A stretch of DNA of 64,000 bases from Nitrospirota bacterium (GCA_016213935.1 JACQZG010000009.1:647-64646), one strand, 5' to 3'. Counted from the stretch's first letter, positions 9,916 to 64,000 are shown. The notes: generated by a model from the sequence alone, not told the origin. Made by a program: numbers and translations.

Positions 9916-10248
9916 TCATTTCATGGACCTTGCGAGCTCGATGTATTGCTGAGGAGGCATGATTACTTCAAGCCCGAGGCAGAATGAGTCTCCGTGATTT
10001 GTCGATTTGTCGCTGAACCATCTTACCCGGCAGACGAGATTAAGCGCTCTTGAGGAAGGGATCTTCAAAAAAAGTTCGACGATTGTTTCCTTGGTGAAAT
10101 CCTTGACATGTTTAATTGTAGCCGTGACAAAATACAGCCCGTTCTCCGAGATGTCGAGTATCATGCCGGGATAAACCGTGTCACAGCAGAGCAGTTCTCC
10201 TTCAAGAAAGTCGGTAATTCTTTTAGCTCTTCTTCTCTCAGAACTCAA
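9916..10248 (-). CDS. PilZ domain protein (c-di-GMP binding)
   Basis: N-terminal RRRAKR (RxxxR-type) and the DISENG (DxSxxG) motifs of PilZ. Confidence 0.7.
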   Translation of the reverse strand: MSSERRRAKRITDFLEGELLCCDTVYPGMILDISENGLYFVTATIKHVKDFTKETIVELFLKIPSSRALNLVCRVRWFSDKSTNHGDSFCLGLEVIMPPQQYIELARSMK

Positions 10249-10251
10249 AAA

Positions 10252-10986: not shown

Positions 10987-10988
10987 TT

Positions 10989-30741: not shown

Positions 30742-30744
30742 GGG

Positions 30745-32145
30745 GTGGCTGGAGTGCAAAGCGTCAAGATACTTGTTGTTGATGACGAGGAACTCATCAG
30801 ATCCTCAATAAAACAGTACCTCGAAAAAGAGGGGCATGAAGTCCTGACCGAAGGAACGGGAGAGGACGGTCTTAAGACATACAGGGCCGAACTCCCGGAT
30901 ATGGTATTTCTCGACCTTCATATGCCCGGGATAAACGGGATGGAGGTTTTGGAGGCAATTAAAAAAATAAACAAAGATACCGTTGTCATAATAATCACGG
31001 CTCACGGCGCGGTTGAGACAGCGGTATCCGCCATAAAACTCGGAGCGTTTGATTTCATAGAAAAGCCTTTTGAGTTCAGCCGGTTGTCAATTTTAATAAA
31101 AAAGGCCCTTGAAACTGTTGACCTCAAGAAAGAGGTAAATTTTTTACGGGGCGAGCAGCATCAGAAGTACAGGTTTGAAAGCATTATCTGTGAGTCCGAA
31201 ATAATGAAGAATATTATTTCGCTTGCCAAAAAGATAGCGGAAAGCGACGCAAACACGGTTTTAATACAGGGAGAGAGCGGGACCGGCAAGACCCTCATAT
31301 CAAGGGCAATTCATTACCACAGCGCGAGGGCTTCTAAACCTTTTGTCGAGATAACATGCACCGCGTTGCCCGAGACGCTTGTCGAAAGCGAGCTTTTCGG
31401 GTATGAGAAGGGAGCATTCACTGACGCTAAATCGGCAAAGAAGGGGCTTTTTGAACTGGCTGACGGAGGGACAGTCTACCTTGATGAAATAGGCGATATG
31501 AAGCCTTCCACACAGGCCAAGTTCCTTAAAGTTATTGAAGAGAAGGTCTTTATGAGGATCGGCAGCCTGAAAGAGACATCTGTTGATGTCAGGATCATCG
31601 CAACGACAAACAGGAACCTGAGGGAAGAGGTTATGAAGGGCAATTTCAGGGAGGATTTATATTACAGGCTTAATGTAATACCCATGGAGTTTCCCGCCTT
31701 GAGGAACAGAAAGGAAGATATATTGCCTACGGCCATGTATTTTCTTGAAACGATGAGGAAAGAGTGCAGAAGAAATATTACCGGCATCTCCAAAGATGTT
31801 CAGGGCCTTTTTTTAAAATACAACTGGCCCGGCAATATCAGAGAGTTGAAGAATGTTATAGAGAGGGTTTTTATTCTCGGGATCGAAGGGCAGCTTCTAC
31901 CTGAGCATCTTCCCCTTGAAATTGCCGGGGTCGGCAGGGAGGCTCCGGTTTTGGGGTCAGTTCATGATCACGATGAATTCAGGTTCCCTATTTCGGATGA
32001 CGGCATATCCATTGAAGAAGTTGAAAAAGAATTCATTATTCAGGCCCTTCGCATGACCGCAGAGAATCAAACAAAAGCGGCTAAACTTCTCGGCCTTTCA
32101 AGGGATGCCCTCAGGTACAGGATGCAGAAGTTCAAACTTCTTTGA
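30745..32145 (+). CDS. Sigma-54-dependent response regulator (NtrC/AtoC family: REC, AAA+ sigma-54 activator, Fis HTH)
   Basis: REC (ILVVDDEELIR...D at FLDLHMPG), Walker A GESGTGKTL, the GAFTDA motif and a C-terminal HTH (AAKLLGLSRDALRYRMQKF). GTG start; it follows the kinase stop by 3 nt. Confidence 0.9.
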   Translation: MAGVQSVKILVVDDEELIRSSIKQYLEKEGHEVLTEGTGEDGLKTYRAELPDMVFLDLHMPGINGMEVLEAIKKINKDTVVIIITAHGAVETAVSAIKLGAFDFIEKPFEFSRLSILIKKALETVDLKKEVNFLRGEQHQKYRFESIICESEIMKNIISLAKKIAESDANTVLIQGESGTGKTLISRAIHYHSARASKPFVEITCTALPETLVESELFGYEKGAFTDAKSAKKGLFELADGGTVYLDEIGDMKPSTQAKFLKVIEEKVFMRIGSLKETSVDVRIIATTNRNLREEVMKGNFREDLYYRLNVIPMEFPALRNRKEDILPTAMYFLETMRKECRRNITGISKDVQGLFLKYNWPGNIRELKNVIERVFILGIEGQLLPEHLPLEIAGVGREAPVLGSVHDHDEFRFPISDDGISIEEVEKEFIIQALRMTAENQTKAAKLLGLSRDALRYRMQKFKLL

Positions 32146-36156: not shown

Positions 36157-36303
36157 TTATAAATAGCCGTGAGGATTAATCAAATGAAAGATAAACAAAA
36201 AATAAATACAGGAGGGTTGCCTATGGAACACAAAACCAAATCCATTTTAGATGGAGAATCAACACTATACTTTATTAAAAGTATAACACCAAAAGGAGGA
36301 ATT

Positions 36304-37308: not shown

Positions 37309-37373
37309 CAAGGGGAACCCGTTGGGGTTCCCCTTGCATCTGAGTGGTTAAGCAACTCTTAACCACTCAGATG
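37309..37373 (+). other. Two consecutive perfect stem-loops between OmcS-like paralogs (terminator/attenuator or RNA processing element)
   Basis: CAAGGGGAACC-cgt-GGTTCCCCTTG, immediately followed by CATCTGAGTGGTTAAG-caact-CTTAACCACTCAGATG (16 bp stem). No clear U-tract follows. Confidence 0.5.
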
Positions 37374-37397
37374 CAAGATACGAAAGCAAGGCATATT

Positions 37398-41288: not shown

Positions 41289-43529
41289 GTGAGTAATAGA
41301 CGTTTAATAAACGCTCTTCTTTTTTTGATTTTATTTATCGGCGGTTCCTCGGCAGTCTTCGCTGACCTGAACGGAAACGCAAGCATTGACTATACCTCGT
41401 TTCAGGAGGATAGGGGCGATGCCAGTATTACCCAAAACGATACTCAGAAGCGTCTAAATTTCTATTTCACTAAACCGATAACCTCCCTTCTTTCTTACCA
41501 GCTAACTTTGAGGGCTGAGATTTCCGATTCTGATTCCAGTGATTCACAGGGCGCTGATTATACCTCTCTTAAGGAAGTCTATGAACCCGGAATAGATTTT
41601 TCGCTTAAAAATGTTATGTACGAATTCGATTCGGGGTTTCATCACAGAGATGAGCTTTATTCTAATTCAGGACAGGCTTATGATAACAAAAGAATCACTG
41701 ATTTTTTCTACAGCCGGTTTGCTGTCAGCCCTCTTAATCTCCCCACTTTTTCCGCTGAACTTAGCAGGATTAAGGAAAGCGATAACATCATGCTCGACAG
41801 GCAAAACAGTATTTATTTTTTGAGGTCATCTTATGAACTGCCTTCTCCCGAGCTTGACTTCAGGGCAAATCTCAATTATTCACATGCAGAAGAAGAGAAC
41901 CCCGGGAAAATATTGTATAAAAACGTCAGCGATGCTTACTCCGGTGATTATCAGTTATCTGATTCACGCATTTTTTTGTCTGGGAAAATAATACTAAATG
42001 GAAGTTACAGGGGCAATTTCAGCAGTGCCGACAGCACGAGTTATTCCTCAGATACCGGATATGTCCTCTTTGAGCGCACCAAACTCGGCGGCCTCCACGC
42101 AAAAGGAACGGCGCTGAATCCTGACGTTGACAGTTTGCCTTCTGAAACAGCTCTTGCTGATGATAATTATATTCTTTCGACATCAATTAATCTCAGCATA
42201 TCAGGTTCTGACGAATATCATAATATAGGGATTTGGGTGCCTTCTGACGATTCTGTCGAGAAACTGTACATTTACGTTAACAAAGATGTAACAGGCGATT
42301 TTTCTTTAAAAAGCATCTCGAACTGGAAAGTCTATAAGAGCGATTTTAACCTGGCAGGCACATGGCTTCCGGTAACGATCAGCAGTGTTTCGGTTTCTCT
42401 ATTTGATCTTGCAAACACCATTTATCGTTACGAAATCGAATTTTCAGCTCCGCATAATGCGAGATATTTCAAAGCGGTTAACATGGATGTCTCCGATATT
42501 TCCAATGTTGCTGTCACAGAGATAGAGGCTTACGGGTCAGAACTCATTCCTGATTCCGGAATATTGACGAGCTCTTCTAACGCACTCGGCCAGAGGCTGG
42601 ATTTTTTATCGGTCTTTCAGCCATTAAGCAAATTCAGATTTAGTTTTAATTATTCGATTGATAAGTCTGACCAGAATCCGTCATCTGTTTTTAGCTCGAT
42701 CACATCTCTTTTTACAAGCATTTTTTCCAAATCAAGGAGCGAAGAAGATCAATCTGATTCCAGCAGCACAATCAATAAAGGCCTCGCACTTAATGCAAAC
42801 TGGTTAACTCATAAATTTCTCACGACCAATTTTCGTTTTCAGCGGAATGAATCATATGACAATGCCTTTAAGACTGATAGGGCGGCTACTACTTATGAAC
42901 TATCTTTTAATTCATCGCCGATTGAAACGCTTAACGCAAGTTTTAGTATGGTAAGAGGGGATAGTTATCAATTTGAAGTAAAAGAGTCGACATATGATTC
43001 GGCAATATTAAGCCTTGGCACCCGATTATACAGGGATTTGAATATGGTGACGGATATAGGATATTCACGGTCTGACTCCGTAAGCGGGGGAGATTCAACT
43101 TCAAGGTATATTTCAGGTAGCATTGATTCGGTTTTTACAGATAAATTGGAGGGTAGCTTGAGCTACAATATAAACTGGAAATCGTCTGGGGAATCAGAAG
43201 TTCAGTCAAAAAGCAGTTCGGCAAAGATAACCTATCGTCCAGGCAGATTTGTTAATTTATCCTGTGATTTTAATTATTCTTCTAATGACGCAGGTTCCGC
43301 CATGTCGGAAATAATAACTGCGGAATGGCGGCCTGTCCCCGTTTTGCAGTTGAATGCCAATTACCAGCACTCAAGTACAAGCTCAGCGAGTATTACAAAG
43401 GATGTTTTTTCGGGCAACGGCACATGGCATATTAAAAAGTTTTTACATGCGCAGCTTTCATTTTTATATGAGAAAGAAGGCGAAAGCACGGAACAGAATG
43501 TCAGTACCGGCATGAGATTATTGTTTTAA
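41289..43529 (+). CDS. Large Ser/Asp-rich secreted protein, predicted outer-membrane beta-barrel (porin-like)
   Basis: Signal peptide (ALLFLILFIGGSSAVFA). 746 aa with alternating polar/aromatic beta-strand-like segments and a C-terminal ...TGMRLLF (terminal Phe, typical of OM beta-barrels). Confidence 0.5.
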   Translation: MSNRRLINALLFLILFIGGSSAVFADLNGNASIDYTSFQEDRGDASITQNDTQKRLNFYFTKPITSLLSYQLTLRAEISDSDSSDSQGADYTSLKEVYEPGIDFSLKNVMYEFDSGFHHRDELYSNSGQAYDNKRITDFFYSRFAVSPLNLPTFSAELSRIKESDNIMLDRQNSIYFLRSSYELPSPELDFRANLNYSHAEEENPGKILYKNVSDAYSGDYQLSDSRIFLSGKIILNGSYRGNFSSADSTSYSSDTGYVLFERTKLGGLHAKGTALNPDVDSLPSETALADDNYILSTSINLSISGSDEYHNIGIWVPSDDSVEKLYIYVNKDVTGDFSLKSISNWKVYKSDFNLAGTWLPVTISSVSVSLFDLANTIYRYEIEFSAPHNARYFKAVNMDVSDISNVAVTEIEAYGSELIPDSGILTSSSNALGQRLDFLSVFQPLSKFRFSFNYSIDKSDQNPSSVFSSITSLFTSIFSKSRSEEDQSDSSSTINKGLALNANWLTHKFLTTNFRFQRNESYDNAFKTDRAATTYELSFNSSPIETLNASFSMVRGDSYQFEVKESTYDSAILSLGTRLYRDLNMVTDIGYSRSDSVSGGDSTSRYISGSIDSVFTDKLEGSLSYNINWKSSGESEVQSKSSSAKITYRPGRFVNLSCDFNYSSNDAGSAMSEIITAEWRPVPVLQLNANYQHSSTSSASITKDVFSGNGTWHIKKFLHAQLSFLYEKEGESTEQNVSTGMRLLF

Positions 43530-51926: not shown

Positions 51927-51949
51927 CAGGCTTGGTTTATTGTCATAAT

Positions 51950-53621: not shown

Positions 53622-53637
53622 TGGCATATGTTTTGCT
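53622..53637 (+). promoter_or_regulatory. Candidate sigma-54 (-24/-12) promoter
   Basis: CTGGCATATGTTTTGCTAT is a near-consensus TGGCAT-N5-TTGCT, 23 nt upstream of the receiver gene at 53660. Confidence 0.6.
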
Positions 53638-53659: not shown

Positions 53660-54043
53660 ATGGCAATGAGTAATAACAAAAAAATTTTAGTTGCTGAAGA
53701 CGAAGAGCTTATCGGTTGGTCGTTAAGAAAGTTTTTTGAGTCTGACGGGTATAGAGTTGATATGGTTCACAGCGGCATTGACGCGCTTAACAGGATTAGA
53801 AATAATGAATATGATATCGTTGTTACAGACCTTTTCATGCCTGGTATGAGCGGGATGGAGGTTCTCTCCAAAATGAAGCAGGACGGCATAACGACCCCTG
53901 TTATAGTGACCTCGGCTTATTTTTCAGAAAAAATCATGTCTGATGTGCTTGATGGGGGAGCTTTCAGATGTATAAATAAGCCATTTAAGCTCGAAGACGT
54001 TCTTGTTGCAATAAAAGATGCTGAAAGAGTAAGCATCAGGTGA
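53660..54043 (+). CDS. Stand-alone response regulator receiver (CheY-like)
   Basis: KILVAEDEEL ... VVTDLFMPGMSGMEV ... TSAY ... KPF; REC domain only. Confidence 0.8.
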   Translation: MAMSNNKKILVAEDEELIGWSLRKFFESDGYRVDMVHSGIDALNRIRNNEYDIVVTDLFMPGMSGMEVLSKMKQDGITTPVIVTSAYFSEKIMSDVLDGGAFRCINKPFKLEDVLVAIKDAERVSIR

Positions 54044-54165: not shown

Positions 54166-55068
54166 ATGGATTTATTTTGGCTTAGCATAATGAATATTAT
54201 ATTTCTTCCCTTAATAGGGTTGATAATGGGAACAGCATTTGCCAACGAAATTCCGAAAGAAACTAATATTCACTTCGCAGGTAAATATTGTGAAGAGTGT
54301 CATTCTCAAACGCCGGAAAAAGGCAAAGATAAATACTTGAAATATGGAAACGATTATGGTCGAACTTGCCGGTGCCATGAATATACCCCAGGGACATACA
54401 TTCACCCGGTTTTTATAAAACTTTCTGATGAGAAAAAGTCCAAGATACCCGATAATTTTCCTTTGGACAACGGAGAAATAACATGTCTGACATGTCATGA
54501 TATATATCTTCAGTGTCAGGACAGAGTTGTTTTAAAACTTTTCAACAGGCTTTTTCTAAGGGGAGGTCCTTACTTGCAGAGGACAGACATATGCTTTAAT
54601 TGTCATAATCGAAGCGAATATGCCAAACTTAATCCGCACAATCAGCTTGATGAGTATGGGAATATAATAGGCGAAAAATGCCTCTATTGTCATACGGAAA
54701 AGCCCGATGAGAAGCTGGATGCATATAAGGAAACATCTTCCGGCCATCAAGTCAAGCTTATTGGAAACTTTGATGCATTGTGTCTCAGATGTCATCCTGA
54801 AAAAGGAAGATTTCATCCGATAAACGCTGATCATCTTAGGAGACCTTCTGCGGTAACTTTGTCCAATATTAAAGAGGCGGAAAAGAAATACAATGTTATT
54901 CTCCCATTAAATGACAAGGGCGAAATCACATGCGCAACTTGTCATAATCCTCATGAAAAGGGCGTGTTGCCTCGCAAAAAGGCCTCTGCCTCAGGTGCAA
55001 GTGAGAAATACAGGCTTCGATTATCCGGCATGACTGGTGAGATATGCAGGGCATGCCATAAAAAATAA
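54166..55068 (+). CDS. Heptaheme (possibly octaheme) c-type cytochrome, secreted
   Basis: Signal peptide. Motifs CEECH, CLTCH, CFNCH, CLYCH, CLRCH, CATCH, CRACH, plus an atypical CRCH (C-x-CH) at 54367-54378. Confidence 0.7.
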   Translation: MDLFWLSIMNIIFLPLIGLIMGTAFANEIPKETNIHFAGKYCEECHSQTPEKGKDKYLKYGNDYGRTCRCHEYTPGTYIHPVFIKLSDEKKSKIPDNFPLDNGEITCLTCHDIYLQCQDRVVLKLFNRLFLRGGPYLQRTDICFNCHNRSEYAKLNPHNQLDEYGNIIGEKCLYCHTEKPDEKLDAYKETSSGHQVKLIGNFDALCLRCHPEKGRFHPINADHLRRPSAVTLSNIKEAEKKYNVILPLNDKGEITCATCHNPHEKGVLPRKKASASGASEKYRLRLSGMTGEICRACHKK

Positions 55069-55084: not shown

Positions 55085-56161
55085 TTGAAGCATATTAATC
55101 ATGTGAGAATCACGTTATATTTCAGTCTCCTCTTCTTTGTTGCGGTGGCAGCATTTGCAACATCTGCTTATGCAGCAGACAAAGAAAACTGTTTAATGTG
55201 CCATAAGTATCGTTTTCTCGGCAGAATCGATGAACACGGTAAAAAAAGAAATTATAATGTTGATGAAAATATTTTCAACAATACGGTTCATCGAAATGTA
55301 CCGTGCAGGGATTGCCACACTCAAATCGCCAACCTCCCGCACGATCCGATAACGGAGGAAGTTAACTGCGGAAATGAATGTCATATTAAGCCGCCCTTCT
55401 CGACTGAAAATTTCTCGCATAAAAAAATAATCCAGATTTACAACAAAAGTGTTCACGGCATAAAAGCAGATGACCCCGAGGATTTGAAGGCGGCAAAGCC
55501 ATATTGTAAATACTGCCATTTAAACCCTATTTTTACGAAAGTGGAGGAAGAAAGGGTAGCAAGTTCAACACTACGGAGATGCTTGAACTGCCATGAAGAG
55601 AAAGGGGTTTCCCAGGCTTATAAGCATATAACGCACCGTCTCCGGCATAAAACATCTCGTTCAAGGCAGGAGATTGTCAAGCTATGTTCGTATAATTGTC
55701 ATGAGAATACCGCATTAATGGCAAGATTTAATGTTTCCCAAGAGAGCCTTGAGTCTGTCGAAACCTATAAGCGATCTATACATGGAAAGGCTGTTGCGTT
55801 AGGTTCTGAGGAGACAGCTGACTGTGTGAGCTGCCACGCGACCAGCAGTATACATGATGTTTACAAGAAGGATGAGATGATGTCAACAGTAAATGAAAGA
55901 AACCTCAAAAGGACGTGTGAGCAGTGCCACAGGGATGTTAGTGATGAGTTTATAAAAATAGATGTTCATTCCGGGATTACCCATGATGAAAAGCCGTTCC
56001 TGCATTTTCTCGAAGTTATGCTTGGTTTTGTTCTGTACGGAACAATATTCAGCTTATTGGGCCTTGCCGTTCTTGAGACGATTGGAAGAAAGAAGGATGG
56101 GATCAAGTGGCAGATTAGAGAGGGCACTACCTGGCGCGGAATATCAAAAAGAGGATTTTAG
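55085..56161 (+). CDS. Octaheme c-type cytochrome with C-terminal TM anchor (Cbc-type quinol oxidoreductase c subunit), module A
   Basis: TTG/GTG start after an AGGGGGTGG RBS and a signal peptide. Motifs CLMCH, CRDCH, CGNECH (CX3CH), CKYCH, CLNCH, CSYNCH (CX3CH), CVSCH, CEQCH. C-terminal hydrophobic helix (FLEVMLGFVLYGTIFSLLGLAVL). Confidence 0.7.
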   Translation: MKHINHVRITLYFSLLFFVAVAAFATSAYAADKENCLMCHKYRFLGRIDEHGKKRNYNVDENIFNNTVHRNVPCRDCHTQIANLPHDPITEEVNCGNECHIKPPFSTENFSHKKIIQIYNKSVHGIKADDPEDLKAAKPYCKYCHLNPIFTKVEEERVASSTLRRCLNCHEEKGVSQAYKHITHRLRHKTSRSRQEIVKLCSYNCHENTALMARFNVSQESLESVETYKRSIHGKAVALGSEETADCVSCHATSSIHDVYKKDEMMSTVNERNLKRTCEQCHRDVSDEFIKIDVHSGITHDEKPFLHFLEVMLGFVLYGTIFSLLGLAVLETIGRKKDGIKWQIREGTTWRGISKRGF

Positions 56162-56186
56162 ATTATAAATCTTACATGGAGGTAAC

Positions 56187-57077
56187 ATGGCAACTTCGTC
56201 TGAAACATTAGTAACCACTGCCGGGAATGCACAGGCGGACAGCGATTATATGCATTATGTCGAGGGAGTCGGTCATGTCCCGAGGGATATTTACAAACAT
56301 GTGCTTTCAGACCCTCTCGGTGACTTGCCTCGGTATTCGATTCATATCGTCATCCAGCACTTTCTTATTTTTATAACATTCATCACTCTCGCGGCTACCG
56401 GCCTCCCTCTTCATTTCGGTGACCTGTTCTGGGCGCCGATAATTCTGGCTCCATTAGGCGGCCCTGATTCCGCACGAATTATACACAGGATTTCTGCAGG
56501 GATAATGATAGTGGCTGCTCTCTATCATTTCATCACTATCGCAATCGGGACTTACAGTAAGCTTAAAAAGCACAAATTTAACCTGTTACATAGTCAGATT
56601 CCGACATTGAAGGATTTAAATGACATTAAGCATGATATCAGGTATTTTCTTGGCAAGGAGCAGTACCGCCCCAAGATGGGCAAGTTCATGTATAAACAGA
56701 AGCTGCATTACCTGGCCATAATATGGGGTACATTTGTAATGATAGTTGCAGGGTCAACGCTTTTGTTTCCTGAGGCCATGGCTAAGTTTTGGCCAAATCC
56801 TGAATTTGCCCAGGATCTCGCAAGGCTTATGCACGCGGATGAGGCAATTATGGCTTCAGCTGTGGTTGTATTTTGGCATTGGTCCAATGTGCACTTGGTG
56901 CCCGGCAGATTTCCGCTTCAGTGGACTTTTTTGACAGGCAGAATCACTCGCGAACATCAGATAGAAGAGCATTTTCTTGAATATATCGATAAGCTAAAAG
57001 ATGACCCGAAAGAAAAGGAATATTTAATAAGCGTATTGAAAGAAAAAGGATACAAAACAGAAGGGGGTGAGGTTTAA
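56187..57077 (+). CDS. Membrane di-heme cytochrome b (FdnI/HydC-like, Ni/Fe-hydrogenase b-type cytochrome family), module A
   Basis: Four or five TM helices with conserved His residues (IHIVIQHFLIF, RIIHRISAGIMIVAALYHF, VVFWHWSNVH). Confidence 0.7.
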   Translation: MATSSETLVTTAGNAQADSDYMHYVEGVGHVPRDIYKHVLSDPLGDLPRYSIHIVIQHFLIFITFITLAATGLPLHFGDLFWAPIILAPLGGPDSARIIHRISAGIMIVAALYHFITIAIGTYSKLKKHKFNLLHSQIPTLKDLNDIKHDIRYFLGKEQYRPKMGKFMYKQKLHYLAIIWGTFVMIVAGSTLLFPEAMAKFWPNPEFAQDLARLMHADEAIMASAVVVFWHWSNVHLVPGRFPLQWTFLTGRITREHQIEEHFLEYIDKLKDDPKEKEYLISVLKEKGYKTEGGEV

Positions 57078-57911
57078 TTGTCCGGGAGACCTAAAAGGCT
57101 TAATCATCCAAAAAGTGTTTATGTTGTGGGTTTAGTTTTTAAAATTATAACCCTTACGGTTATCATTGCGGTTTTATATCATCTGACCTTGTCGCATCAT
57201 GGCCCAAACCTTCTGACTCCTTTAAAAACAAAGATCGAGGAAAAGCAGAAGTCGGAAATTATGGAAGAAGTACAACATCTTGAAGAACTCGAAGTCCACA
57301 GGCATTTTCATAATATAGCCCCATTTCCGGAGATGCCTGAAAACCTGAGGCCGGTCTGTTTTATATGCCATTCAGATTACCCTCACAGCAAGAGTAAAAA
57401 GGTCAGGGCGATGTTAAATATGCACACCCAATTTTTCACATGTGAGGCGTGCCATTTAGAAGAAGACCCCGGTCTTAAGGTTGTTTTCAACTGGTATAAT
57501 CCACAGGATGAAAATCCTAAAGGGCCTTTTTTCGGCACGGATTATGACTCTGAAACAGGCAATCTCATAACTGTCACGGATAAATTATCAAAGATATCAG
57601 TTTTTTATAAAAAAGGTGATAAATTAGAATCTACGATTCAGATGCAGGATGCCCCGATCGCGATCGATTACATGAAAATCAGGGATAAACTTACTCCTGA
57701 CCAGCGCGATAATGTCAAAAAGAAATTTCATGTAAGGATCAAACCCAAGGGTCATGAATGCAAAAAATGCCACGACAGAAACAGTATTCTTGATTTTAGG
57801 AAACTCAGCTTTTCAGACAACAGAAGGGTTGACCTTGAGCAATTGAATATCACAGGTATGATTACGAAGTATGAAATGTTTTACCTGCCTAACCTTTTTC
57901 AGGGTGAGTAA
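57078..57911 (+). CDS. TM-anchored triheme c-type cytochrome, module A
   Basis: N-terminal TM helix (VVGLVFKIITLTVIIAVLY), then CFICH, CEACH and CKKCH. It starts 1 nt after the upstream stop. Confidence 0.65.
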   Translation: MSGRPKRLNHPKSVYVVGLVFKIITLTVIIAVLYHLTLSHHGPNLLTPLKTKIEEKQKSEIMEEVQHLEELEVHRHFHNIAPFPEMPENLRPVCFICHSDYPHSKSKKVRAMLNMHTQFFTCEACHLEEDPGLKVVFNWYNPQDENPKGPFFGTDYDSETGNLITVTDKLSKISVFYKKGDKLESTIQMQDAPIAIDYMKIRDKLTPDQRDNVKKKFHVRIKPKGHECKKCHDRNSILDFRKLSFSDNRRVDLEQLNITGMITKYEMFYLPNLFQGE

Positions 57912-57975
57912 GAGATTTACAGGGAATATTTAAAGTTCCCTGCAGTCAAGAACTTATTTTGTCGACACCTTTAAT

Positions 57976-58012
57976 GCCTCCCCCTTCGCATGCGAAGGGG
58001 GGGTGTTTCTTC
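57976..58012 (+). terminator. Rho-independent terminator after module A
   Basis: CCTCCCCCTTCGCA-TGCGAAGGGGGGG palindrome followed by TGTTTCTT. A smaller hairpin (CAGGGAA...TTCCCTG) lies at 57920-57942. Confidence 0.6.
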
Positions 58013-58084
58013 CATTGGTTTTTATAATACTGGCTTTATGTTCCTGATTTCTTATTAGGTAGTTACTCTTAGGGAGATTTTCAT

Positions 58085-59005
58085 TTGAGAAACTGTATTA
58101 AGTTTTTATTTTTTATATTCTGTTTGATTGCTGTCAGTTATAACAATGCATTTTCACTGGACTGTGTTAATGCCAGGTTCCTTTTTGACATAAAAGGCGA
58201 TATTGATCAGCCAAGCGATGTTTCCGTAAGCCAGAATGGAGACATCTATTTTGTTGATGGCGTAAATAACCGTATAGTAGCCGTTGATAATTTGGGCCGC
58301 TTTAAATTTACATTTGGCAAGAGGGGATCAGGAAAAGGCGAATTCGACTTGCCTCTGGGTATTGATATTTCTTCTGATGATAAAATTTATATTGCCGATA
58401 CAGGCAATAAGAGGATACAGGTATTTGACCTGGAAGGTAATATATTGACTATGTTCAGCACCGTCCTTGAATCTGACAGAAACACTTCAGAACCTGTAGA
58501 TGTCCTTGTGTCAAAATTTAAGGACTACCTTTATGTTTCTGATAATAATAATCATGAAATTAAGGTGTATGACAGAGGAGGAAGGTTTAAACTTAAATGG
58601 GGAAAATTCGGTGAGGGATACGGCGAGTTCAGATATCCTGCCACCATGTCTGCCAATTCCCTTTCAGAGGTTTTTATTGCGGATGTTATAAATACCAGGG
58701 TTCAAAGGTTTTCTCCCATGGGCGATCACATTAATGATATTGGCGTATGGGGGGTTCACCCGGGTGATTTTTTCAGGCCTAAAGGCGTTTCTGTTTCGAA
58801 AGACGGCTGGGTATTCGTGAGTGACAGCTATATGGGGGTCGTACAGGTCTTTTCATCGGCAGGCAAGTTTGACGGAGTCATATGTGAAAACAATAAAAAG
58901 AAAGTGTTCCGAACTCCGGTAGGCGTTTTTGTAGACAAGGACAGCAGACTCCTCGTTGTTGAAATGAGGGCAAATAAAATTACTGTCCTCAAAATATTGC
59001 AATGA
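58085..59005 (+). CDS. Secreted NHL-repeat beta-propeller protein
   Basis: TTG start and a signal peptide. NHL units (GDIYFVDGVNNRIVAVD, IYIADTGNKRIQVFD, LYVSDNNNHEIKVYD, VFIADVINTRVQRF, VFVSDSYMGVVQVF). Confidence 0.75.
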   Translation: MRNCIKFLFFIFCLIAVSYNNAFSLDCVNARFLFDIKGDIDQPSDVSVSQNGDIYFVDGVNNRIVAVDNLGRFKFTFGKRGSGKGEFDLPLGIDISSDDKIYIADTGNKRIQVFDLEGNILTMFSTVLESDRNTSEPVDVLVSKFKDYLYVSDNNNHEIKVYDRGGRFKLKWGKFGEGYGEFRYPATMSANSLSEVFIADVINTRVQRFSPMGDHINDIGVWGVHPGDFFRPKGVSVSKDGWVFVSDSYMGVVQVFSSAGKFDGVICENNKKKVFRTPVGVFVDKDSRLLVVEMRANKITVLKILQ

Positions 59006-59039
59006 CCTTTCATTTCCTAAGCAACATATTGATTATATT

Positions 59040-61289
59040 ATGCGTTATCTACGCTGTTTAAACGGGTTAGTAATATTTTTTTTTGTTTTTGTTCTGGTTG
59101 CTCCCGATTCATTTGCTCTTGTTGAATCTGCAAGAAGAGATTGTGTCCTTTGCCATATAATGTGGATGGATGATTTCAGGGAGAATAAGGAAACTCTGAT
59201 CGAATGGCAGCCGTCGAATGCACTTAAGAAAGACACACAGGGCGTGGAAAGCTCTGAGGATATATGCTACAGTTGCCATGACGGCTACGTAAGAGATTCA
59301 AGAAACATAACATGGAAATATAACAGACATCCTGTCTTTGTAAAACCTTCCGGCAAGGTTATAGTACCTGATTCTTTTCCCCTGAGCGTCAAGAATGAAA
59401 TTTACTGCGGCACATGTCATTCAGCTCACGGCAAAGGCGCGGCTGCCACGGAAGAACACGCTAAGACATCGCTTTTCAGGGAAGTAAACGTTAATTCCAG
59501 CCTTTGCGAGATGTGCCACCTGGACCAGGCAAATTTCAGAGCATCCAACGGCCATCCAGTTCATTCAAGGGCTATCAAGCTTCCTGATAAACTTTTTGAG
59601 AACGGAGCTGTTTCTGCTTCTGACAAAAATACCGTTATTTGTCAGTCCTGTCATAAAATTCACGGCGCAAAAGGGCAGAAACTTCTTATTGTGGACAATC
59701 AGAACTCTGAATTATGCATAATTTGTCATCAGGAAAAAGAGAGTATATCGGGAACGAAACATGACCTCAGCATCACCCTTCCTGATGTCAAGAACATAAA
59801 GGATAAGTCATTGTCTGAATCCGGCCCGTGCGGGGCATGCCATCTTCCCCATAATGCTGTCGGCAAAAGATTGTGGGCTCGCACAATGGGGAAGGGCAAT
59901 CCGGCTGCACAGATGTGCCTTACATGCCATGACCAGTCTTCCGGCTATAAAATTAAAGGAGTTGGCGAGTTTTCTCATCCTATAGACATAAAACCGGCAT
60001 CAGGAACGCACATTCCTCCGGAATTGCCTCTTTTTTCCTCTGAGGGAGCAAAGACGAAGGATGGGAATGTGCAGTGCTTCACTTGCCATGATATACACAG
60101 ATGGGATCCACAGACTCCTATTAATAAAGGCGGGAAGGACGTGGAAGGCGACTCATCAAACAGTTTTTTAAGAATAAGCAACAGCAGTGGCTCAGGCCTT
60201 TGCATTTTATGCCACGTTGATAAAAAGCAACTGGTTTATTCAGACCATAATCTCGAAGTCACTGCTCCGGAGGAGAAGAATATTCAGGGCGTAAATACCC
60301 GGTCTTCCGGCCCCTGCGGCGCTTGTCATCTTCCGCATAATGCATCTTCATATCGTCTGTGGGCAAGGAATCTTCCCAAAGAAAATATTGCGGGTGAATT
60401 ATGTATCTCGTGCCATAAGAATGAAGGCCCGGCAAAGGATAAACAGTTAGGGAATTATTTTCATCCTGTTAACGTATCTCTCGAAAAATTCAAGATCAGC
60501 ACGGCGCTCCCCTTATTTGATGAAAAAGGAAACAAGACCCAGGACGGAAAGCTTGTATGCATGACATGTCATGACCCCCATGTGTGGAACCCTGACAGTT
60601 CATTATTTATTGAAGAGTATAAATACGCCAATGTCGAGGGAGACGCCACAAACAGCTTTTTACGAAAGCATAATTCGCCTACTTCGGATCTTTGCGAAGC
60701 ATGTCATTTCAAACAGGCTTTTGTTGATGGAACCGATCATGACTTAAATGTTACCGCACCTGATGCAAAAAATCTCCTTGGCCAGACAGTCAAAGAGTCA
60801 GGACAATGCGGGGCCTGCCACCTCGTTCATAACAGCCCTAACAGTTTAAGGTTATGGGCAAGGCCGTATCTGCCGTACATAGAAAAATCGGGTATCATTG
60901 AATCTCTATGCAACAGCTGTCATTCAAAAAATAATATCGCAGGTAATAAGATCCCGGTAATTGCCACGCATCCTGGCGACAAACTGGTTAATAATATAAT
61001 GAGATGTGACCGCGATGACATTGATTACGCCCCATTGTTTGACGTGAAAAGCGGGAACTTTACCAATTACGGCAATATTTCGTGCCCAACATGCCACAAT
61101 GCGCATCAGTGGAGCCCTTTATCAAAGATAAAAGGCATAGGCCAAAACGTGGAGGGCAATGCAACAAATAGTTTTTTAAGGAATGTCAGCTATAGAAACA
61201 TATGTATAGATTGCCACGGTTTTGACGCACTTTTCAGATATAAGTATTTTCATGACCTTGAAGACAGAATTCCTCAAAGGACCCGCTGA
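59040..61289 (+). CDS. 18-heme c-type cytochrome with three internal ~150 aa repeats
   Basis: Signal peptide and 18 CXXCH motifs counted. The block SGPCGACHLPHNA..RLWAR...C(L/I)(T/S)CH occurs three times, and the block ...NSFLR...C..CH...DH(D/N)L(E/N)VTAP(E/D)(E/A)KN also recurs. Confidence 0.8.
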   Translation: MRYLRCLNGLVIFFFVFVLVAPDSFALVESARRDCVLCHIMWMDDFRENKETLIEWQPSNALKKDTQGVESSEDICYSCHDGYVRDSRNITWKYNRHPVFVKPSGKVIVPDSFPLSVKNEIYCGTCHSAHGKGAAATEEHAKTSLFREVNVNSSLCEMCHLDQANFRASNGHPVHSRAIKLPDKLFENGAVSASDKNTVICQSCHKIHGAKGQKLLIVDNQNSELCIICHQEKESISGTKHDLSITLPDVKNIKDKSLSESGPCGACHLPHNAVGKRLWARTMGKGNPAAQMCLTCHDQSSGYKIKGVGEFSHPIDIKPASGTHIPPELPLFSSEGAKTKDGNVQCFTCHDIHRWDPQTPINKGGKDVEGDSSNSFLRISNSSGSGLCILCHVDKKQLVYSDHNLEVTAPEEKNIQGVNTRSSGPCGACHLPHNASSYRLWARNLPKENIAGELCISCHKNEGPAKDKQLGNYFHPVNVSLEKFKISTALPLFDEKGNKTQDGKLVCMTCHDPHVWNPDSSLFIEEYKYANVEGDATNSFLRKHNSPTSDLCEACHFKQAFVDGTDHDLNVTAPDAKNLLGQTVKESGQCGACHLVHNSPNSLRLWARPYLPYIEKSGIIESLCNSCHSKNNIAGNKIPVIATHPGDKLVNNIMRCDRDDIDYAPLFDVKSGNFTNYGNISCPTCHNAHQWSPLSKIKGIGQNVEGNATNSFLRNVSYRNICIDCHGFDALFRYKYFHDLEDRIPQRTR

Positions 61290-61529
61290 AAATCGTAACA
61301 GTTTTGCCTGCCATGCTTAATCATTATGCAATATTTATAAGGTAATTAATTTTTCAATATCAGGTGTATTACCGATATATCAGGCAAGTCATTTTTTTAT
61401 TACAAAATGGCTAATGCATTATCACATAAGAAAAAATAGCGCCATATTTATAACCGCTGAATTCTATCAGCATAATCATATAATAATTTATTATTTCACA
61501 TTAAGTAAGGTTTGTTGTAAAAAAATTAT

Positions 61530-62582
61530 ATGAGCCTAAAAAGAGCTGCAAGGCTTTATATTGTTGGATTTATTTTTATAGTATTGAATTTCTATCCTTC
61601 CAAGAATCTTTTTTCTGCAGATGTCGGCAACTGTCTCTTGTGCCACAAATATCCTGGCTTAAGCAGGATTGACGAGCAAGGCAAAATGAAACTTCTCTAT
61701 GTTAATGAAGATATTTTCAATATCAGCGTTCACTTAAAAGTTAAATGTGAGGGCTGTCATACTGATATAAAAAAGATTCCCCATGACCCTGTGAATAAAG
61801 TAGACTGCCTGGTTGAATGCCATATTGTTGAACCTTCAAGCGAACAGAAATTCTCTCATAAGGATGTTGATAATTATGTTAAAAAGAGTGTTCATGCCGC
61901 GTTAGACAAGTATGGGATGCCGAAGAAATTCAAAGAGGATCTGCCTACCTGCAAAAATTGCCATGACGAGCCGCTATACAGGCCTCTCTCTTTCTTTAAG
62001 CAGGTGCGTCCAGGTATTTCTGAAGCTGCACTCGGCAGGTGCAGGGTATGTCACAAGAAAGAGGATTTTATTATAAGATTTTATAATCATGTTACCACAA
62101 GATTGCACCGCACCAGAAATCCAATCAATATTGCAGAGGTTTGCGCTAGGTGTCATGATGATCCGTTGTTGGTTGAAAGGCATAATCTGGGCACAAGGGC
62201 GGTTTTTTCATACGGAGAGACCTTTCACGGGAAAGCGGCACGCTTTCTTGATGAAAGAGTGCCGGACTGTCTTGATTGCCATGTTAATACAGGCGAATCT
62301 GTCCATCAAATGCTGAGTCATAAAGATTCTGCCGCGATAACCTATCGGGAAAACAAATATCTGGCATGTTCTAACATTGAATGCCATCCCGGCACGTCGC
62401 AGCAATTCGCCAGTTATAAAGTTCACGCGGAATTTAATCTGGACCAAAGCCCGGTGCAATATTATTTCACCCTCTTTTTCATAATTCTCACAGGGGGCAC
62501 GCTCCTGCCGTTGATGGCGATCATATTTTTGGACTTGATAAGAAGGTTATTCCCGGACGCCGTGATACCAAGGAGAAGATGA
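61530..62582 (+). CDS. Octaheme c-type cytochrome with C-terminal TM anchor, module B (paralog of 55085-56161)
   Basis: Signal peptide. Motifs CLLCHKYPGLSRIDEQGK (paralog: CLMCHKYRFLGRIDEHGK), CEGCH, CLVECH (CX3CH), CKNCH, CRVCH, CARCH, CLDCH, CSNIECH (CX4CH). C-terminal TM helix. Confidence 0.7.
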   Translation: MSLKRAARLYIVGFIFIVLNFYPSKNLFSADVGNCLLCHKYPGLSRIDEQGKMKLLYVNEDIFNISVHLKVKCEGCHTDIKKIPHDPVNKVDCLVECHIVEPSSEQKFSHKDVDNYVKKSVHAALDKYGMPKKFKEDLPTCKNCHDEPLYRPLSFFKQVRPGISEAALGRCRVCHKKEDFIIRFYNHVTTRLHRTRNPINIAEVCARCHDDPLLVERHNLGTRAVFSYGETFHGKAARFLDERVPDCLDCHVNTGESVHQMLSHKDSAAITYRENKYLACSNIECHPGTSQQFASYKVHAEFNLDQSPVQYYFTLFFIILTGGTLLPLMAIIFLDLIRRLFPDAVIPRRR

Positions 62583-62586
62583 AGAC

Positions 62587-63420
62587 ATGGAAAAGTATCC
62601 TCTTATAAAAACGATAAACGGGCGCAGGTATTTTTATAGGTTTTCATTGAATCAGAGGGTGCAGCACATAATACTTGCCTTATCAGTAATTATACTCGTG
62701 TTAACCGGAATGCCCCTGAAGTTTCATAATGCTGGCTGGGCTCCTTATCTGTATAAAATATTCGGAGGGATAAAAGCCGCTCCCATTGTGCATAAAGCGG
62801 CAGGCAGCATCCTTCTTATCCTCTTTGCTTATCATATAATTTATCTCGTTTATGTAATTTATAAATATCAAATAGTCCCTTTGAGAGATAAGGAACGGCG
62901 TCTCACTTCGGGCATGATCTTGAAGTTACTCGCGACTCAGCCGCTGGTTCCGAATATGAAAGATGCGAGAGACATAAGGGATCTCATGACATATCTTCTT
63001 TATTTTACAAATAAAAGGCCTGACGGCGATGCTTTTACATGGAAGGAAAAGTTTGATTACTGGGCGCCTTTCTGGGGTATGGTAGTAATTGGGCTGTCAG
63101 GCCTTATAATGTGGAATAAAGTGCTTGCGACAAAGATCGTACCAGGCATTGTCATTAATTTCTCTTTGATTGCTCACAGCGATGAGGCACTTCTTGCGGC
63201 GCTTTTTTTATTCATATGGCATTGGTATAATGTTCATTTTTCAATTTCGGTTTTTCCAATGGGGATGGTCTTTATAACGGGTTATTTGCCCGAAGAGCTG
63301 ATGATTGAGGAACATTATGAATATTATGTCAAAATCATGAAGCAGGCCGGGCTGGACAATGAAATACGCCCTCCGCACGGAGCACATTCAGAACTTTCTA
63401 CAGACGAGGCAGAGAAATAA
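62587..63420 (+). CDS. Membrane di-heme cytochrome b, module B (paralog of 56187-57077)
   Basis: TM helices with His ligands (RVQHIILALSVIIL, IVHKAAGSILLILFAYHIIY, LFIWHWYNVH). Confidence 0.7.
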   Translation: MEKYPLIKTINGRRYFYRFSLNQRVQHIILALSVIILVLTGMPLKFHNAGWAPYLYKIFGGIKAAPIVHKAAGSILLILFAYHIIYLVYVIYKYQIVPLRDKERRLTSGMILKLLATQPLVPNMKDARDIRDLMTYLLYFTNKRPDGDAFTWKEKFDYWAPFWGMVVIGLSGLIMWNKVLATKIVPGIVINFSLIAHSDEALLAALFLFIWHWYNVHFSISVFPMGMVFITGYLPEELMIEEHYEYYVKIMKQAGLDNEIRPPHGAHSELSTDEAEK

Positions 63421-64000
63421 TGAAAAACATTTTTTACAAATTATATGTCGTAGCTTTTATGTGTTTAACGGTGTGGTTCATCGTAATTATCTGGAATGTC
63501 ACTTTTCATCATGTTATTGAAGAATACGAGAACCGTAAAGAGCTTGAAGAAGTCGCAACCATAAAAGAACAGAAAAAACGAGAAGCGGAAAAAACCAAAT
63601 TCGAGAGAATAATACTTCAAAGCGAAGAAAGGGTCAAGCATTATCTTGGTTACAGGGTGATCGAGGAGCAGAGAATCGAAGGCCATTTTCATCATATCGG
63701 TTTTGATATTGGCCCTGACAACAGATCGTACTGCATAAGATGCCATGGGGATATGCCGCATGATAAGGTCAGAGATCTTAGGGCGTTTCTTAATATGCAC
63801 GCATTCTTCATCGCCTGTCAGACATGTCATGTAAAGACCGAAGGAAGAGGCCCCAGAGTTTACAAATGGTACGACAGAAAAACAGGCGAGTTGGTACCAA
63901 GCCCTGTGCTGACATACAGAGCCGGCACGTATAATGCAAAAATTATTCAAATCGAGAACACAGGTGTCGGAGAGCCTCAACGGGTTGACTCACAGGAGCG
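63420..64000 (+). CDS. TM-anchored c-type cytochrome, module B, 3'-partial at window end (paralog of 57078-57911)
   Basis: ATG overlaps the upstream TAA. N-terminal TM helix (LYVVAFMCLTVWFIVIIW), then CIRCHGDMPHDKVRDLRAFLNMHAFFIACQTCH, paralleling CFICHSDYPHSKSKKVRAMLNMHTQFFTCEACH. It is absent from the ORF track because no stop is reached. Confidence 0.65.
   Translation, partial: MKNIFYKLYVVAFMCLTVWFIVIIWNVTFHHVIEEYENRKELEEVATIKEQKKREAEKTKFERIILQSEERVKHYLGYRVIEEQRIEGHFHHIGFDIGPDNRSYCIRCHGDMPHDKVRDLRAFLNMHAFFIACQTCHVKTEGRGPRVYKWYDRKTGELVPSPVLTYRAGTYNAKIIQIENTGVGEPQRVDSQE

Follow-up and report, generated by a model that had tools for sequence, protein, structure and literature searches.

Putative CbcBA-like quinone:cytochrome oxidoreductase modules occur as a diverged tandem pair in a Nitrospirota genome

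How the quinone pool exchanges electrons with cytochromes of the periplasm is less well understood than any other step of extracellular electron transfer, and we know of no solved structure of a CbcBA-type complex. The closest described system is CbcBA/Cbc5 of Geobacter sulfurreducens (GSU0590-0594), a menaquinol:cytochrome c oxidoreductase of low-potential extracellular respiration, for which a histidine in the anchor helix of CbcA has been proposed as fourth b-heme ligand (Joshi et al.). For sulfate-reducing lineages, the inward direction of electron uptake has been put forward, with a reverse-running CbcBA proposed for Seep-SRB2 (PMC10553843). Here we analyzed a stretch of 64,000 nucleotides from an uncultured Nitrospirota bacterium (hereafter the window), together with related loci identified by L numbers. 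The window carries two modules (Table 1) that most likely represent a variant of the CbcBA kind, as suggested by intermediate relatives and by published descriptions of the Geobacter complex.

Two paralogous units and their surroundings

Both modules, A at 55085-57911 and B from 61530 to the end of the window, start with the gene for an 8-heme cytochrome c that carries a membrane helix at its C-terminus. A di-heme cytochrome b of the FdnI type with four helices comes second and a tri-heme cytochrome c anchored through its N-terminus third, with intergenic spacings of 25 (A1-A2), 0 (A2-A3), 4 (B1-B2) and -1 nt (B2-B3). BLASTP aligned A1 with B1 at 33% identity (E 3e-58), A2 with B2 at 30% (E 3e-36) and A3 with B3 at 30% (E 4e-18). 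At the sequence level, the similarity of the two modules is far above chance. The original prediction of a shared gene order and paralogous proteins was thus upheld, with open reading frames and motifs in the expected places. Its definition of the duplicated unit as three genes was not borne out: the repeated unit comprises five, the trio being followed by an NHL beta-propeller and a multiheme cytochrome of 750-830 aa. The last two genes of unit B lie outside the window and are visible in loci L001 and L002; unit-A and unit-B paralogs share 44% identity for the propeller and 31% (E 1e-60) for the large cytochrome. The NHL gene is retained after A3 in most loci, and orthologs of the large cytochrome occur in >15.

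Tandem A and B units recurred in 11 other loci of Nitrospirota and Desulfobacterales MAGs, where the five-gene unit is likewise conserved. Because of this recurrence, we regard the duplication as ancient; judged from these comparisons, units A and B are old, diverged paralogs retained side by side. Carriers of the A/B type were MAGs in every case. The closest relatives were MAGs of Thermodesulfovibrionia and Desulfobacterales, both of which are known as sulfate-reducing lineages. No Geobacter record was present in the best 80 of 501 genome matches or among the protein matches listed.

Table 1 Features of the modules and their surroundings in the window
Feature	Coordinates	Strand	Description and basis
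Sensor histidine kinase	29230..30741	+	HAMP, HisKA, HATPase (Pfam); one CXXCH in predicted periplasmic loop between two hydrophobic helices
Sigma-54-dependent response regulator	30745..32145	+	Receiver, sigma-54 activator, HTH_8 (Pfam); synteny with modules in related loci
Secreted protein ending ...MRLLF, without family match	41289..43529	+	746 aa; signal-peptide-like N-terminus, terminal Phe
Sigma-54-type -24/-12 promoter-like element	53622..53637	+	TGGCATATGTTTTGCT; consensus match only
Single-domain response-regulator receiver, first gene of module-A operon	53660..54043	+	PF00072, E 5e-26
7-heme cytochrome c, immediately 5' of A1	54166..55068	+	300 aa; N-terminal hydrophobic helix; seven CXXCH; Pfam cytochrome families
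A1, 8-heme cytochrome c, CbcA-like	55085..56161	+	358 aa; C-terminal membrane anchor
A2, FdnI-type 4-helix di-heme cytochrome b, CbcB-like	56187..57077	+	296 aa; ligands H58, H100, H216, H231
A3, tri-heme cytochrome c	57078..57911	+	277 aa; N-terminal membrane anchor, charged stalk; three CXXCH
Intrinsic-terminator-like hairpin after A3	57978..58013	+	11-bp stem, 8 G-C pairs, T-rich tail; consensus scan only
NHL-repeat six-bladed beta-propeller, fourth gene of unit A	58085..59005	+	Signal peptide; PF01436, E 4e-24
18-heme cytochrome c, fifth gene of unit A	59040..61289	+	749 aa; internal repeats; 18 CXXCH; Paired_CXXCH E 2e-32
B1, 8-heme cytochrome c, A1 paralog	61530..62582	+	350 aa; C-terminal anchor
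B2, FdnI-type cytochrome b, A2 paralog	62587..63420	+	277 aa; ligands H27, H69, H197, H212
B3, N-terminally anchored cytochrome c, A3 paralog	63420..64000 (cut by window end)	+	Two CXXCH visible

The receiver gene that opens the module-A operon has a counterpart in L001, an equally placed ortholog with 69% identity. The promoter-like element, with one mismatch to TGGCAC-N5-TTGC, lies 23 nt 5' of its start codon, and similar -24/-12 elements precede the first module-A operon gene in L001, L019, L025, L030 and L034; none was found in loci with an adjacent regulator. The sigma-54-dependent regulator has the same architecture as Geobacter BccR (bioRxiv 10.1101/2021.04.15.440034) and is encoded 23 kb upstream in the window and directly adjacent to the modules in seven related loci. 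In L002, L005, L006, L007, L010, L013 and L038, an ortholog of the sensor kinase gene is the immediate upstream neighbor of A1, in divergent orientation; we infer the link for this window, where the kinase is a candidate redox sensor for the modules. Directly before A1, the 7-heme cytochrome has orthologs in at least 12 loci. The 746-aa secreted protein gave neither a Pfam nor a PDB match, and its homolog adjoins the modules in L002 and L003; it is probably a beta-barrel of the outer membrane that belongs to the same island.

Subunits of the trio

Translation of A1 starts at a TTG codon, 5 nt downstream of the ribosome-binding site GGGGGTGGA. The protein contains eight heme sites (CLMCH, CRDCH, CGNECH, CKYCH, CLNCH, CSYNCH, CVSCH, CEQCH) and a C-terminal hydrophobic helix at residues 311-329. 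B1 likewise has eight sites (CLLCH, CEGCH, CLVECH, CKNCH, CRVCH, CARCH, CLDCH, CSNIECH), with its C-terminal helix at residues 315-333. The spacer lengths of A1 orthologs were 2-2-3-2-2-3-2-2 in 22 loci and 2-2-3-2-2-2-2-2 in 13, and those of B1 orthologs 2-2-3-2-2-2-2-4 in 13 of 13. The original prediction that these subunits mix CXXCH with CX3CH and CX4CH, and that the paralogs differ in which sites are extended, was therefore confirmed, and the extended sites can be considered real features because they are kept in orthologs. Both proteins align end to end with 7-heme, C-terminally anchored CbcA-like proteins, with seven sites in common and one inserted through a single ~38-aa insertion that bears a CXXCH. 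The anchor-helix histidine is kept in 7-heme, 9-heme and C-type relatives; A1 has Gly in its place and B1 has Met.

The FdnI-type nature of the b subunit, predicted beforehand, was recovered at several levels. A2 lacks CXXCH and has four hydrophobic or amphipathic helices, and both A2 and B2 matched PF01292 (E 3e-7 and 2e-10). A profile of the b subunits matched E. coli FdnI (1kqf_C) with E 2.5e-8, in an alignment that pairs all four heme ligands. FdnI was also the sole significant PDB match (E 1e-5, TM 0.72) of an AlphaFold2 model of A2 (pLDDT 82). Most of the invariant residues other than ligands (P139, D143, K172, Y175) are located in the cytoplasmic loop between helices 2 and 3. Across 82 distinct related loci, 113 of the 129 cytochrome b genes of the family have a multiheme cytochrome gene directly upstream or fused to them.

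The third subunit belongs to a family of 386 homologs whose public names, among the matches listed, are 'hypothetical protein' or an evidently wrong automatic name, and we found no earlier description of it in the literature. A3 starts directly after the A2 stop codon, and the public annotation begins 61 residues too late; the complete protein has an N-terminal helix at residues 14-32, separated from the first heme by a stalk of ~60 residues. Its predicted structure is of low confidence (pLDDT 56). The ATG of B3 shares one base with the B2 stop codon, and complete B3 orthologs have 286-309 aa and three CXXCH. In L021, A1 and A3 are naturally fused in the order A1-helix-linker-helix-A3, which fits adjacent helices and periplasmic heme domains for the two subunits. 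An assignment to the NapC/NirT/NrfH quinol dehydrogenases was rejected: PF03264 matched with E 0.006 and 16.8 bits against a threshold of 24.1, and A3/B3 have three hemes after a ~60-residue stalk, whereas that family has four directly after the helix.

Direction of electron flow and alternative functions

Taken together, each trio would probably assemble into an inner-membrane menaquinone:multiheme-cytochrome oxidoreductase of the CbcBA kind. In such a complex, the four-helix FdnI-type b subunit would stack two b hemes across the membrane and, by analogy with FdnI, carry its quinone pocket on the cytoplasmic side. The 8-heme subunit would be held on it via its C-terminal helix and the tri-heme subunit via its N-terminal helix, so that both could contribute to a periplasmic chain of 11 c hemes. 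Electrons might then move between quinone pool and periplasm over 2 b hemes and 11 c hemes, with the NHL propeller and the 18-heme cytochrome as the likely periplasmic partner toward an outer-membrane complex whose genes lie upstream. Each of the two units has most likely become specialised, in potential, partners or direction.

That the modules feed outward extracellular electron transfer, as originally predicted, is an assumption. There is a considerable, if less than even, chance that the same machine runs in reverse, passing electrons from periplasmic or extracellular cytochromes to menaquinone in a Qrc-like role in a sulfate reducer. The taxonomy of the closest relatives points in this direction, as do the proposal for Seep-SRB2 and the NHL-plus-multiheme-cytochrome clusters tied to electron uptake in Ca. 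Tenderia and D. ferrophilus. Furthermore, should the quinone site face the cytoplasm like that of FdnI, membrane potential would be lost during quinol oxidation and built up during quinone reduction, i.e., electron uptake; the FdnI-like site suggested by the profile match and by the FdnGHI structure would thus make uptake energy-conserving. Against the inward direction, the window contains no sulfate-reduction genes, and Geobacter CbcBA is experimentally a quinol oxidase.

More speculatively, and in our estimation unlikely, the two units could be self-contained electron lanes, each with a quinone gate and a periplasm-spanning 18-heme wire, working at different potentials or in opposite directions, one for uptake and one for discharge, with the third subunit an octaheme reductase truncated to a membrane-anchored relay. 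If so, this would be a modular trans-envelope architecture that is not known from any cultured electroactive bacterium but would be widespread among the uncultured Thermodesulfovibrionia and Desulfobacterales that live in sediments and aquifers.

It is improbable that the trio instead works as a quinol dehydrogenase that serves a catalytic cytochrome in the periplasm, with A3/B3 acting as a reductase of a soluble substrate, similar to octaheme tetrathionate reductase (OTR), and not as a relay. A3 and B3 do resemble the C-terminal half of an OTR-like protein: A3 is colinear at two places with that half of a 688-aa, 8-heme protein encoded after a cbcBA-like pair in a Bacteroidetes MAG (L067), and both subunits match the octaheme model TIGR04315. 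These matches are local, however, with 23.9-34.9 bits against a cut-off of 375 and three hemes against eight. The whole N-terminal half, which presumably holds the active-site heme, is absent, and in most loci a propeller and a large relay-type cytochrome come after the trio.

An even more remote reading takes A2/B2 as the membrane anchors for a formate dehydrogenase or hydrogenase with its catalytic genes at another place in the genome, in keeping with weak matches to TIGR01583 and FdnI models and with JGI and NCBI names such as 'formate dehydrogenase subunit gamma' for many homologs; yet the TIGR01583 scores (47.6 and 52.5 bits) fell far short of the cut-off of 115.85 bits, NF007558 and NF007924 scored far under their cut-offs of 339-341, and the conserved neighbor is a multiheme cytochrome, also in Metallumcola and Desulfitobacterium, which are cultured Firmicutes. 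Genes for molybdopterin, Fe-S or NiFe subunits were absent within 8-10 kb in the window and in L001-L003, and catalytic and Fe-S genes of such enzymes were likewise missing from 29 to 64 kb of the window and from L001-L003. Placement of the b subunit in hydrogenase or formate dehydrogenase operons, named at the outset as evidence that would speak against the prediction, was thus not found; multiheme cytochromes adjoin it instead.

Relation to described systems

As menaquinone:cytochrome oxidoreductases of the CbcBA kind, the modules would represent a variant maintained in two phyla whose bacteria are abundant in the subsurface and in sediments, and would add a third, previously unnamed subunit family. 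The long-kept A/B pair offers a natural experiment on the specialisation of such gates. The gene set could also serve as a marker to predict whether uncultured lineages that are presumed to reduce sulfate exchange electrons with minerals or partners.

With FdnI (PDB 1kqf chain C), the b subunits share the fold of four helices, the complete set of four histidine ligands to the b hemes and a conserved loop on the cytoplasmic side where FdnI has its menaquinone pocket. They differ in that the periplasmic partner is a multiheme cytochrome c and not FdnGH; identity is ~21%, and A2 has extra invariant histidines (H114, H236) and a 45-residue N-terminal extension. The third subunits share with the octaheme tetrathionate reductase family (TIGR04315; PDB 1sp3) the motif CxxCH-x3-PH-x(8-9)-LNxH-x5-CxxCH and, in A3 and complete B3 orthologs, a C-terminal heme site, with the elements ordered as in the protein of L067. 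Unlike that family, they keep three of eight hemes, lack the N-terminal half and have gained a membrane anchor and a charged stalk. In cluster composition, the island resembles the Uet cluster of Ca. Tenderia electrophaga and the NHL/cytochrome clusters of Desulfovibrio ferrophilus, which also combine NHL propellers, a peptidyl-prolyl isomerase, a probable outer-membrane barrel and many multiheme cytochromes; as described, those clusters are without a dedicated cytochrome-b quinone module.

The predicted match to the Cbc family holds in part. In common with Geobacter CbcBA/Cbc5, a gene for a C-terminally anchored multiheme cytochrome c directly precedes that for a 4-helix FdnI-type di-heme b, a pairing widespread in the b family, and A1/B1 are homologous to 7-heme CbcA-like proteins over their full length, as are A2/B2 to the cytochromes b paired with them. 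Upstream, the operon includes a gene for a small response regulator, the receiver paralleling GSU0596 of the cbcBA operon, an NtrC-type sigma-54 regulator may be associated, further multiheme cytochromes follow downstream, and the same protein family also occurs in Myxococcota, Bacteroidota and Firmicutes. The 7-heme relatives, which come from other phyla, provide the connection: their clusters (7-heme c, b, 12-heme c, HAMP kinase and sigma-54 regulator; L062, L073, L075, L077, L081, L084) mirror the composition of Geobacter Cbc5, which we compared by its published description.

The match does not extend to the third gene, the seven hemes or the anchor histidine. A1 and B1 have eight heme sites versus seven in CbcA, with CX3CH at heme 3 in both, CX3CH at heme 6 in A (22 of 35 orthologs) and CX4CH at heme 8 in B. 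The third gene encodes a 277-aa membrane-anchored tri-heme protein in contrast to the 12-heme CbcC, and 12-heme proteins are found 3' of the b gene only in the 7-heme relatives. While CbcA has its anchor-helix histidine, the b subunit here supplies all four FdnI ligands, and an entire clade with the full FdnI ligand set in its b subunit would do without this histidine. Finally, the unit described here differs from Cbc5 in extending to an NHL propeller and a multiheme cytochrome of 750-830 aa (18 sites in unit A), and in being tandemly duplicated.

Paralogous modules within a five-gene unit

All six open reading frames of modules A and B, their heme motifs and the peptide matches quoted in the original prediction were found in the window (see table). 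The proteins of the two modules are paralogous, with 33% identity between the 8-heme cytochromes c A1 and B1 (E 3e-58), 30% between the FdnI-type cytochromes b A2 and B2 (3e-36) and 30% between the anchored tri-heme cytochromes c A3 and B3 (4e-18). Their topology was also as predicted: topology signals indicate a signal peptide and a single C-terminal hydrophobic helix in A1/B1, four helices in A2/B2, and one N-terminal helix in A3/B3, followed by a charged stretch of ~60 residues and then the first heme site. Translation of A1 starts at a TTG, five bases downstream of a ribosome-binding site (GGGGGTGGA), and A3 starts at a TTG directly after the A2 stop codon. In module B, the B2 stop codon and the ATG of B3 share one base.

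Coordinates of features in the window and in related loci from other genomes
Feature	Sequence	Position	Strand
Heme-containing sensor kinase and sigma-54 response regulator	window	29230-32145	
Histidine kinase of this pair	window	29230-30741	
Uninterrupted gene run	window	36169 to window end	+
Cytochrome, paralog of the split 5-heme cytochrome	window	36169-37299	
Cytochrome, paralog of the split 5-heme cytochrome	window	37344-38609	
Cytochrome island of lower G+C	window	38000-64000	
Split 5-heme cytochrome gene	window	50907-51926	
Secreted 444-aa cytochrome	window	51896-53230	
-24/-12 element	window	53622	
A1, 8-heme cytochrome c	window	55085-56161	
A2, cytochrome b	window	56187-57077	
A3, tri-heme cytochrome c	window	57078-57911	
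Hairpin with T tail	window	57978-58013	
NHL propeller of unit A	window	58085-59005	
18-heme cytochrome of unit A	window	59040-61289	
Module B (B1, B2, B3)	window	61530 to window end	
Intact ortholog of the split cytochrome	L001	4589-5620	
Fused A1-like/A3-like gene	L021	10108-12078	
Region with type C trio (B, C and A in tandem)	L024	1000-9844	
Tandem 7-heme / b / 12-heme trios	L084 (CP121694)	5115-12437	

We located relatives of A2 in their contigs and fetched 80 genome loci, the best 80 of 501 genome matches, all of which were MAG loci. ORFs were then called in all fetched loci and compared with the proteins of the window. The public protein HY809_02770, encoded on a 142,670-nt contig of a 'Nitrospirae bacterium' MAG, matches A2 with 100% identity. 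In Nitrospirota/Thermodesulfovibrionia MAGs with 64-82% identity to A2, the genes are ordered A1, A2, A3, NHL propeller and ~750-aa 18-heme cytochrome (unit A), followed by B1, B2, B3, NHL propeller and ~830-aa cytochrome. The propellers of the two units are paralogs (44% identity), as are the large cytochromes (31% identity, E 1e-60). The duplication and gene order originally described were thus upheld, but the repeat unit comprises five genes and not three.

Apart from the window, 11 distinct loci among those fetched show the A+B tandem; three are from Desulfobacterales MAGs (L024, L031, L035). Some Desulfobacterales loci (L024; also L023, L026, L051) carry a third paralogous trio, type C, whose c subunit is ~37% identical to B1, with ~30% identity for the b subunit and ~32% for the third subunit; in L024, trios B, C and A stand in tandem. 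In a rough neighbour-joining tree of b subunits, built without support values and used only for the separation of these types, A, B and C each form a clade of their own amid the family's other clades. This indicates that modules A and B are long-maintained paralogs rather than a recent copy.

Kinship with CbcBA-like complexes

Pfam searches matched both A2 and B2 to PF01292. A profile built from these two proteins and their orthologs aligned with Escherichia coli FdnI (1kqf_C, E 2.5e-8), placing A2 H58, H100, H216 and H231 (H27, H69, H197 and H212 in B2) on FdnI H18, H57, H155 and H169, the residues that ligate both b hemes of FdnI in the FdnGHI structure. The four histidines of A2, together with H114 and H236, are invariant in 28 family members from several phyla. 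FdnI was also the only significant PDB match (E 1e-5, target TM 0.72) of an AlphaFold2 model of A2 (mean pLDDT 82). The loop connecting helix 2 to helix 3 contains most of the invariant non-ligand residues (P139, D143, K172, Y175); it aligns with the part of FdnI that borders the menaquinone pocket, which faces the cytoplasm. By analogy, we infer a quinone site in this loop region of A2/B2. An alternative, raised in the original prediction itself, is that A2/B2 are membrane anchors of a formate dehydrogenase or hydrogenase; this was rejected, as no dehydrogenase or hydrogenase subunit was found near any locus annotated, in the window or among related loci, and scores against formate dehydrogenase gamma models fell far below the cut-offs.

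Published descriptions of the Geobacter Cbc5 gene cluster give CbcA as a cytochrome with seven hemes whose C-terminal helix bears a histidine, proposed as a b-heme ligand, CbcB as a 4-helix di-heme cytochrome b, CbcC as a 12-heme cytochrome and CbcD as a protein with a HAMP domain; a response regulator is part of the cbcBA operon, and the gene for the sigma-54 regulator BccR is divergent from it. We found this pattern in fetched loci whose b subunits share 35-41% identity with A2/B2, including L062, L073, L075, L077 and L081, from MAGs labelled Myxococcales, Bradymonadia, Deltaproteobacteria and, in one case, Enterobacteriaceae. These loci encode a 7-heme c with the C-terminal helix histidine, a cytochrome b (sometimes fused) and two further heme proteins, one small with 3 hemes and one with 12, along with a HAMP kinase and a sigma-54 regulator. 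Two tandem 7-heme / b / 12-heme trios also occur in a cultured Firmicute that reduces Fe(III), Metallumcola ferriviriculae; their b genes are annotated as cytochrome b/b6 or formate dehydrogenase gamma. Matches listed in a protein search seeded with a 7-heme-type b subunit included Myxococcota and Firmicutes and no Geobacter.

The alignment of A1 and B1 with the 7-heme proteins runs from heme 1 through to the anchor helix; seven sites are shared, and the extra CXXCH lies in a ~38-residue insertion. Across the family, a cytochrome with five or more heme sites lies immediately upstream of, or is fused to, 113 of 129 b genes (82 distinct loci). Most other b genes are followed directly by a 9-heme cytochrome, and a few stand at contig edges or have mis-called ORFs. 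Together with the lack of dehydrogenase subunits near annotated loci, the alignment and the upstream cytochromes indicate that the A/B modules belong to a wider protein family including CbcBA-like modules, with Geobacter CbcBA itself compared by description.

Compared with the seven hemes of published CbcA, A1 and B1 have eight. They mix CXXCH with CX3CH and CX4CH sites as anticipated, and the extended sites differ between them: heme 3 is always CX3CH, heme 6 of A1 is CX3CH in 22 orthologs with the window's pattern (Nitrospirota-type loci), and heme 8 of B1 is CX4CH in 13/13 orthologs. The anchor-helix histidine described for CbcA is retained in 7-heme, 9-heme and type C relatives, whereas A1 has Gly and B1 Met at this position. 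With every FdnI heme ligand present in the b subunit, this histidine appears not to be needed for the two b hemes in the A/B modules. Sequence searches of the PDB found nothing closely related to A1 or A3. Among the solved structures there, CbcA-like c subunits had a single relative, 28pb_A (278-aa chain, 'Cytochrome c'), which matches the A1/B1 profile distantly (E 9e-4) and the Metallumcola 7-heme protein over hemes 1-6 (E 4e-11).

Another widespread arrangement of the family was seen in MAGs of Acidobacteriota, Armatimonadota, Latescibacterota and others (L039-L080). It consists of a cytochrome b, a 9-heme c with the anchor-helix histidine, a second cytochrome b and a 16-18-heme cytochrome; an 11-heme c fused to the b subunit is sometimes present too.

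A third subunit outside the Cbc5 set

While the Cbc-family reading was largely right, it does not extend to A3/B3, a new third subunit that corresponds to no Cbc5 component. A3 has 386 detectable homologs, and all public names shown for them are 'hypothetical protein' or evidently wrong automatic names. The public annotation of the window's A3 (HY809_02775, 216 aa) takes an internal Met as its start and so omits the first 61 residues, the membrane helix among them; N-terminal residues of A3 are invariant in 25 homologs, and homologs of 275-278 aa conserve the missing N-terminus.

In a Bacteroidetes MAG (L067), a cbcBA-like pair is followed by a 688-aa 8-heme protein, which scores 85 bits against the tetrathionate-reductase octaheme model TIGR04315 (cut-off 375). 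The two-heme motif and last heme of A3 are colinear with its C-terminal half, which suggests that A3 is a membrane-anchored protein derived from one of this kind by truncation. A reading of A3 as an NrfH/NapC-type cytochrome was rejected because of its three hemes and a sub-threshold match. The AlphaFold2 model of A3 was too poor for use (pLDDT 56). Directly after a normal A1-A2-A3 trio, L021 carries one 656-aa ORF with 11 heme sites and no b gene of its own, in which an A1-like protein and its helix are joined by a short basic linker to an A3-type helix and an A3-like domain. Such a fusion would be expected if both heme domains were periplasmic and the helices neighbours in one complex.

Genomic setting, transcription and electron flow

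Housekeeping genes occupy the first 29 kb of the window, and from ~29 kb onward nearly all genes concern electron transfer. The long plus-strand run encodes multiheme cytochromes, NHL and other beta-propellers, lipoproteins, a peptidyl-prolyl isomerase and a 746-aa protein with a signal peptide, a C-terminal Phe and no family match. Homologs of several of these upstream genes (a 5-heme cytochrome, an NHL propeller, a second propeller and the 746-aa protein) adjoin the modules in other Nitrospirota loci.

G+C decreases from ~0.46-0.48 (1-38 kb) to ~0.39-0.42 over the cytochrome island, which may stem from horizontal acquisition or from the composition of the island's genes. One 5-heme cytochrome gene is apparently split into 228-aa and 96-aa ORFs in different frames, and its ortholog in L001 is a single intact 343-aa ORF; the split represents either a frameshift/pseudogene or an assembly error. 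The secreted 444-aa cytochrome has a low heme density (7 CXXCH and one CX4CH) and, among fetched loci, is present only in L001 (70% identity). The histidine kinase and its orthologs have one CXXCH between two membrane helices, which suggests a periplasmic heme-c redox sensor and recalls the HAMP- and heme-containing CbcD of Geobacter Cbc5.

Given intergenic distances of only 25 and 0 nt in trio A and 4 and -1 nt in trio B, the genes of each trio are very likely co-transcribed. A strong hairpin 3' of A3 and a 240-nt AT-rich gap 5' of B1 suggest that A and B are probably separate transcription units. Upstream, TGGCATATGTTTTGCT has one mismatch to the sigma-54 -24/-12 consensus (a consensus match only) and lies 23 nt before a small response-regulator gene, which opens the run regulator / 7-heme c / A1 / A2 / A3; in five other loci the same operon is preceded by similar elements. 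Seven Nitrospirota loci have kinase and sigma-54 regulator genes divergent from and adjoining A1, similar to bccR beside Geobacter cbcBA, and no clean sigma-54 promoter element was found in loci with the regulator adjoining A1. Sigma-54 regulation of the modules is plausible.

The modules are most likely menaquinone:cytochrome oxidoreductases. Electrons would cross the membrane via the two b hemes, linking a quinone site on the cytoplasmic side with 11 c hemes in the periplasm, and each trio would be coupled to its own propeller and 18-heme cytochrome, which may connect to upstream-encoded components, probably of the outer membrane. At an FdnI-like quinone site, oxidising quinol would draw on the membrane potential, consistent with the low energy yield reported for Geobacter CbcBA, and quinone reduction would conserve energy, as has been proposed for Seep-SRB2 (PMC10553843). 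The original prediction presumed outward flow, with the modules feeding extracellular electron transfer; considering the lineages involved, we rate inward and outward electron flow as about equally likely.

No description of an A/B-type complex was found in the searchable literature. The A/B variant is conserved in uncultured Nitrospirota and Desulfobacterota. The A/B complex is a variant of the known CbcBA-like kind, set apart from Geobacter CbcBA by the published descriptions, and the gene content of the surrounding island is similar to that of the Uet cluster in Ca. Tenderia and of the NHL/cytochrome clusters in D. ferrophilus.
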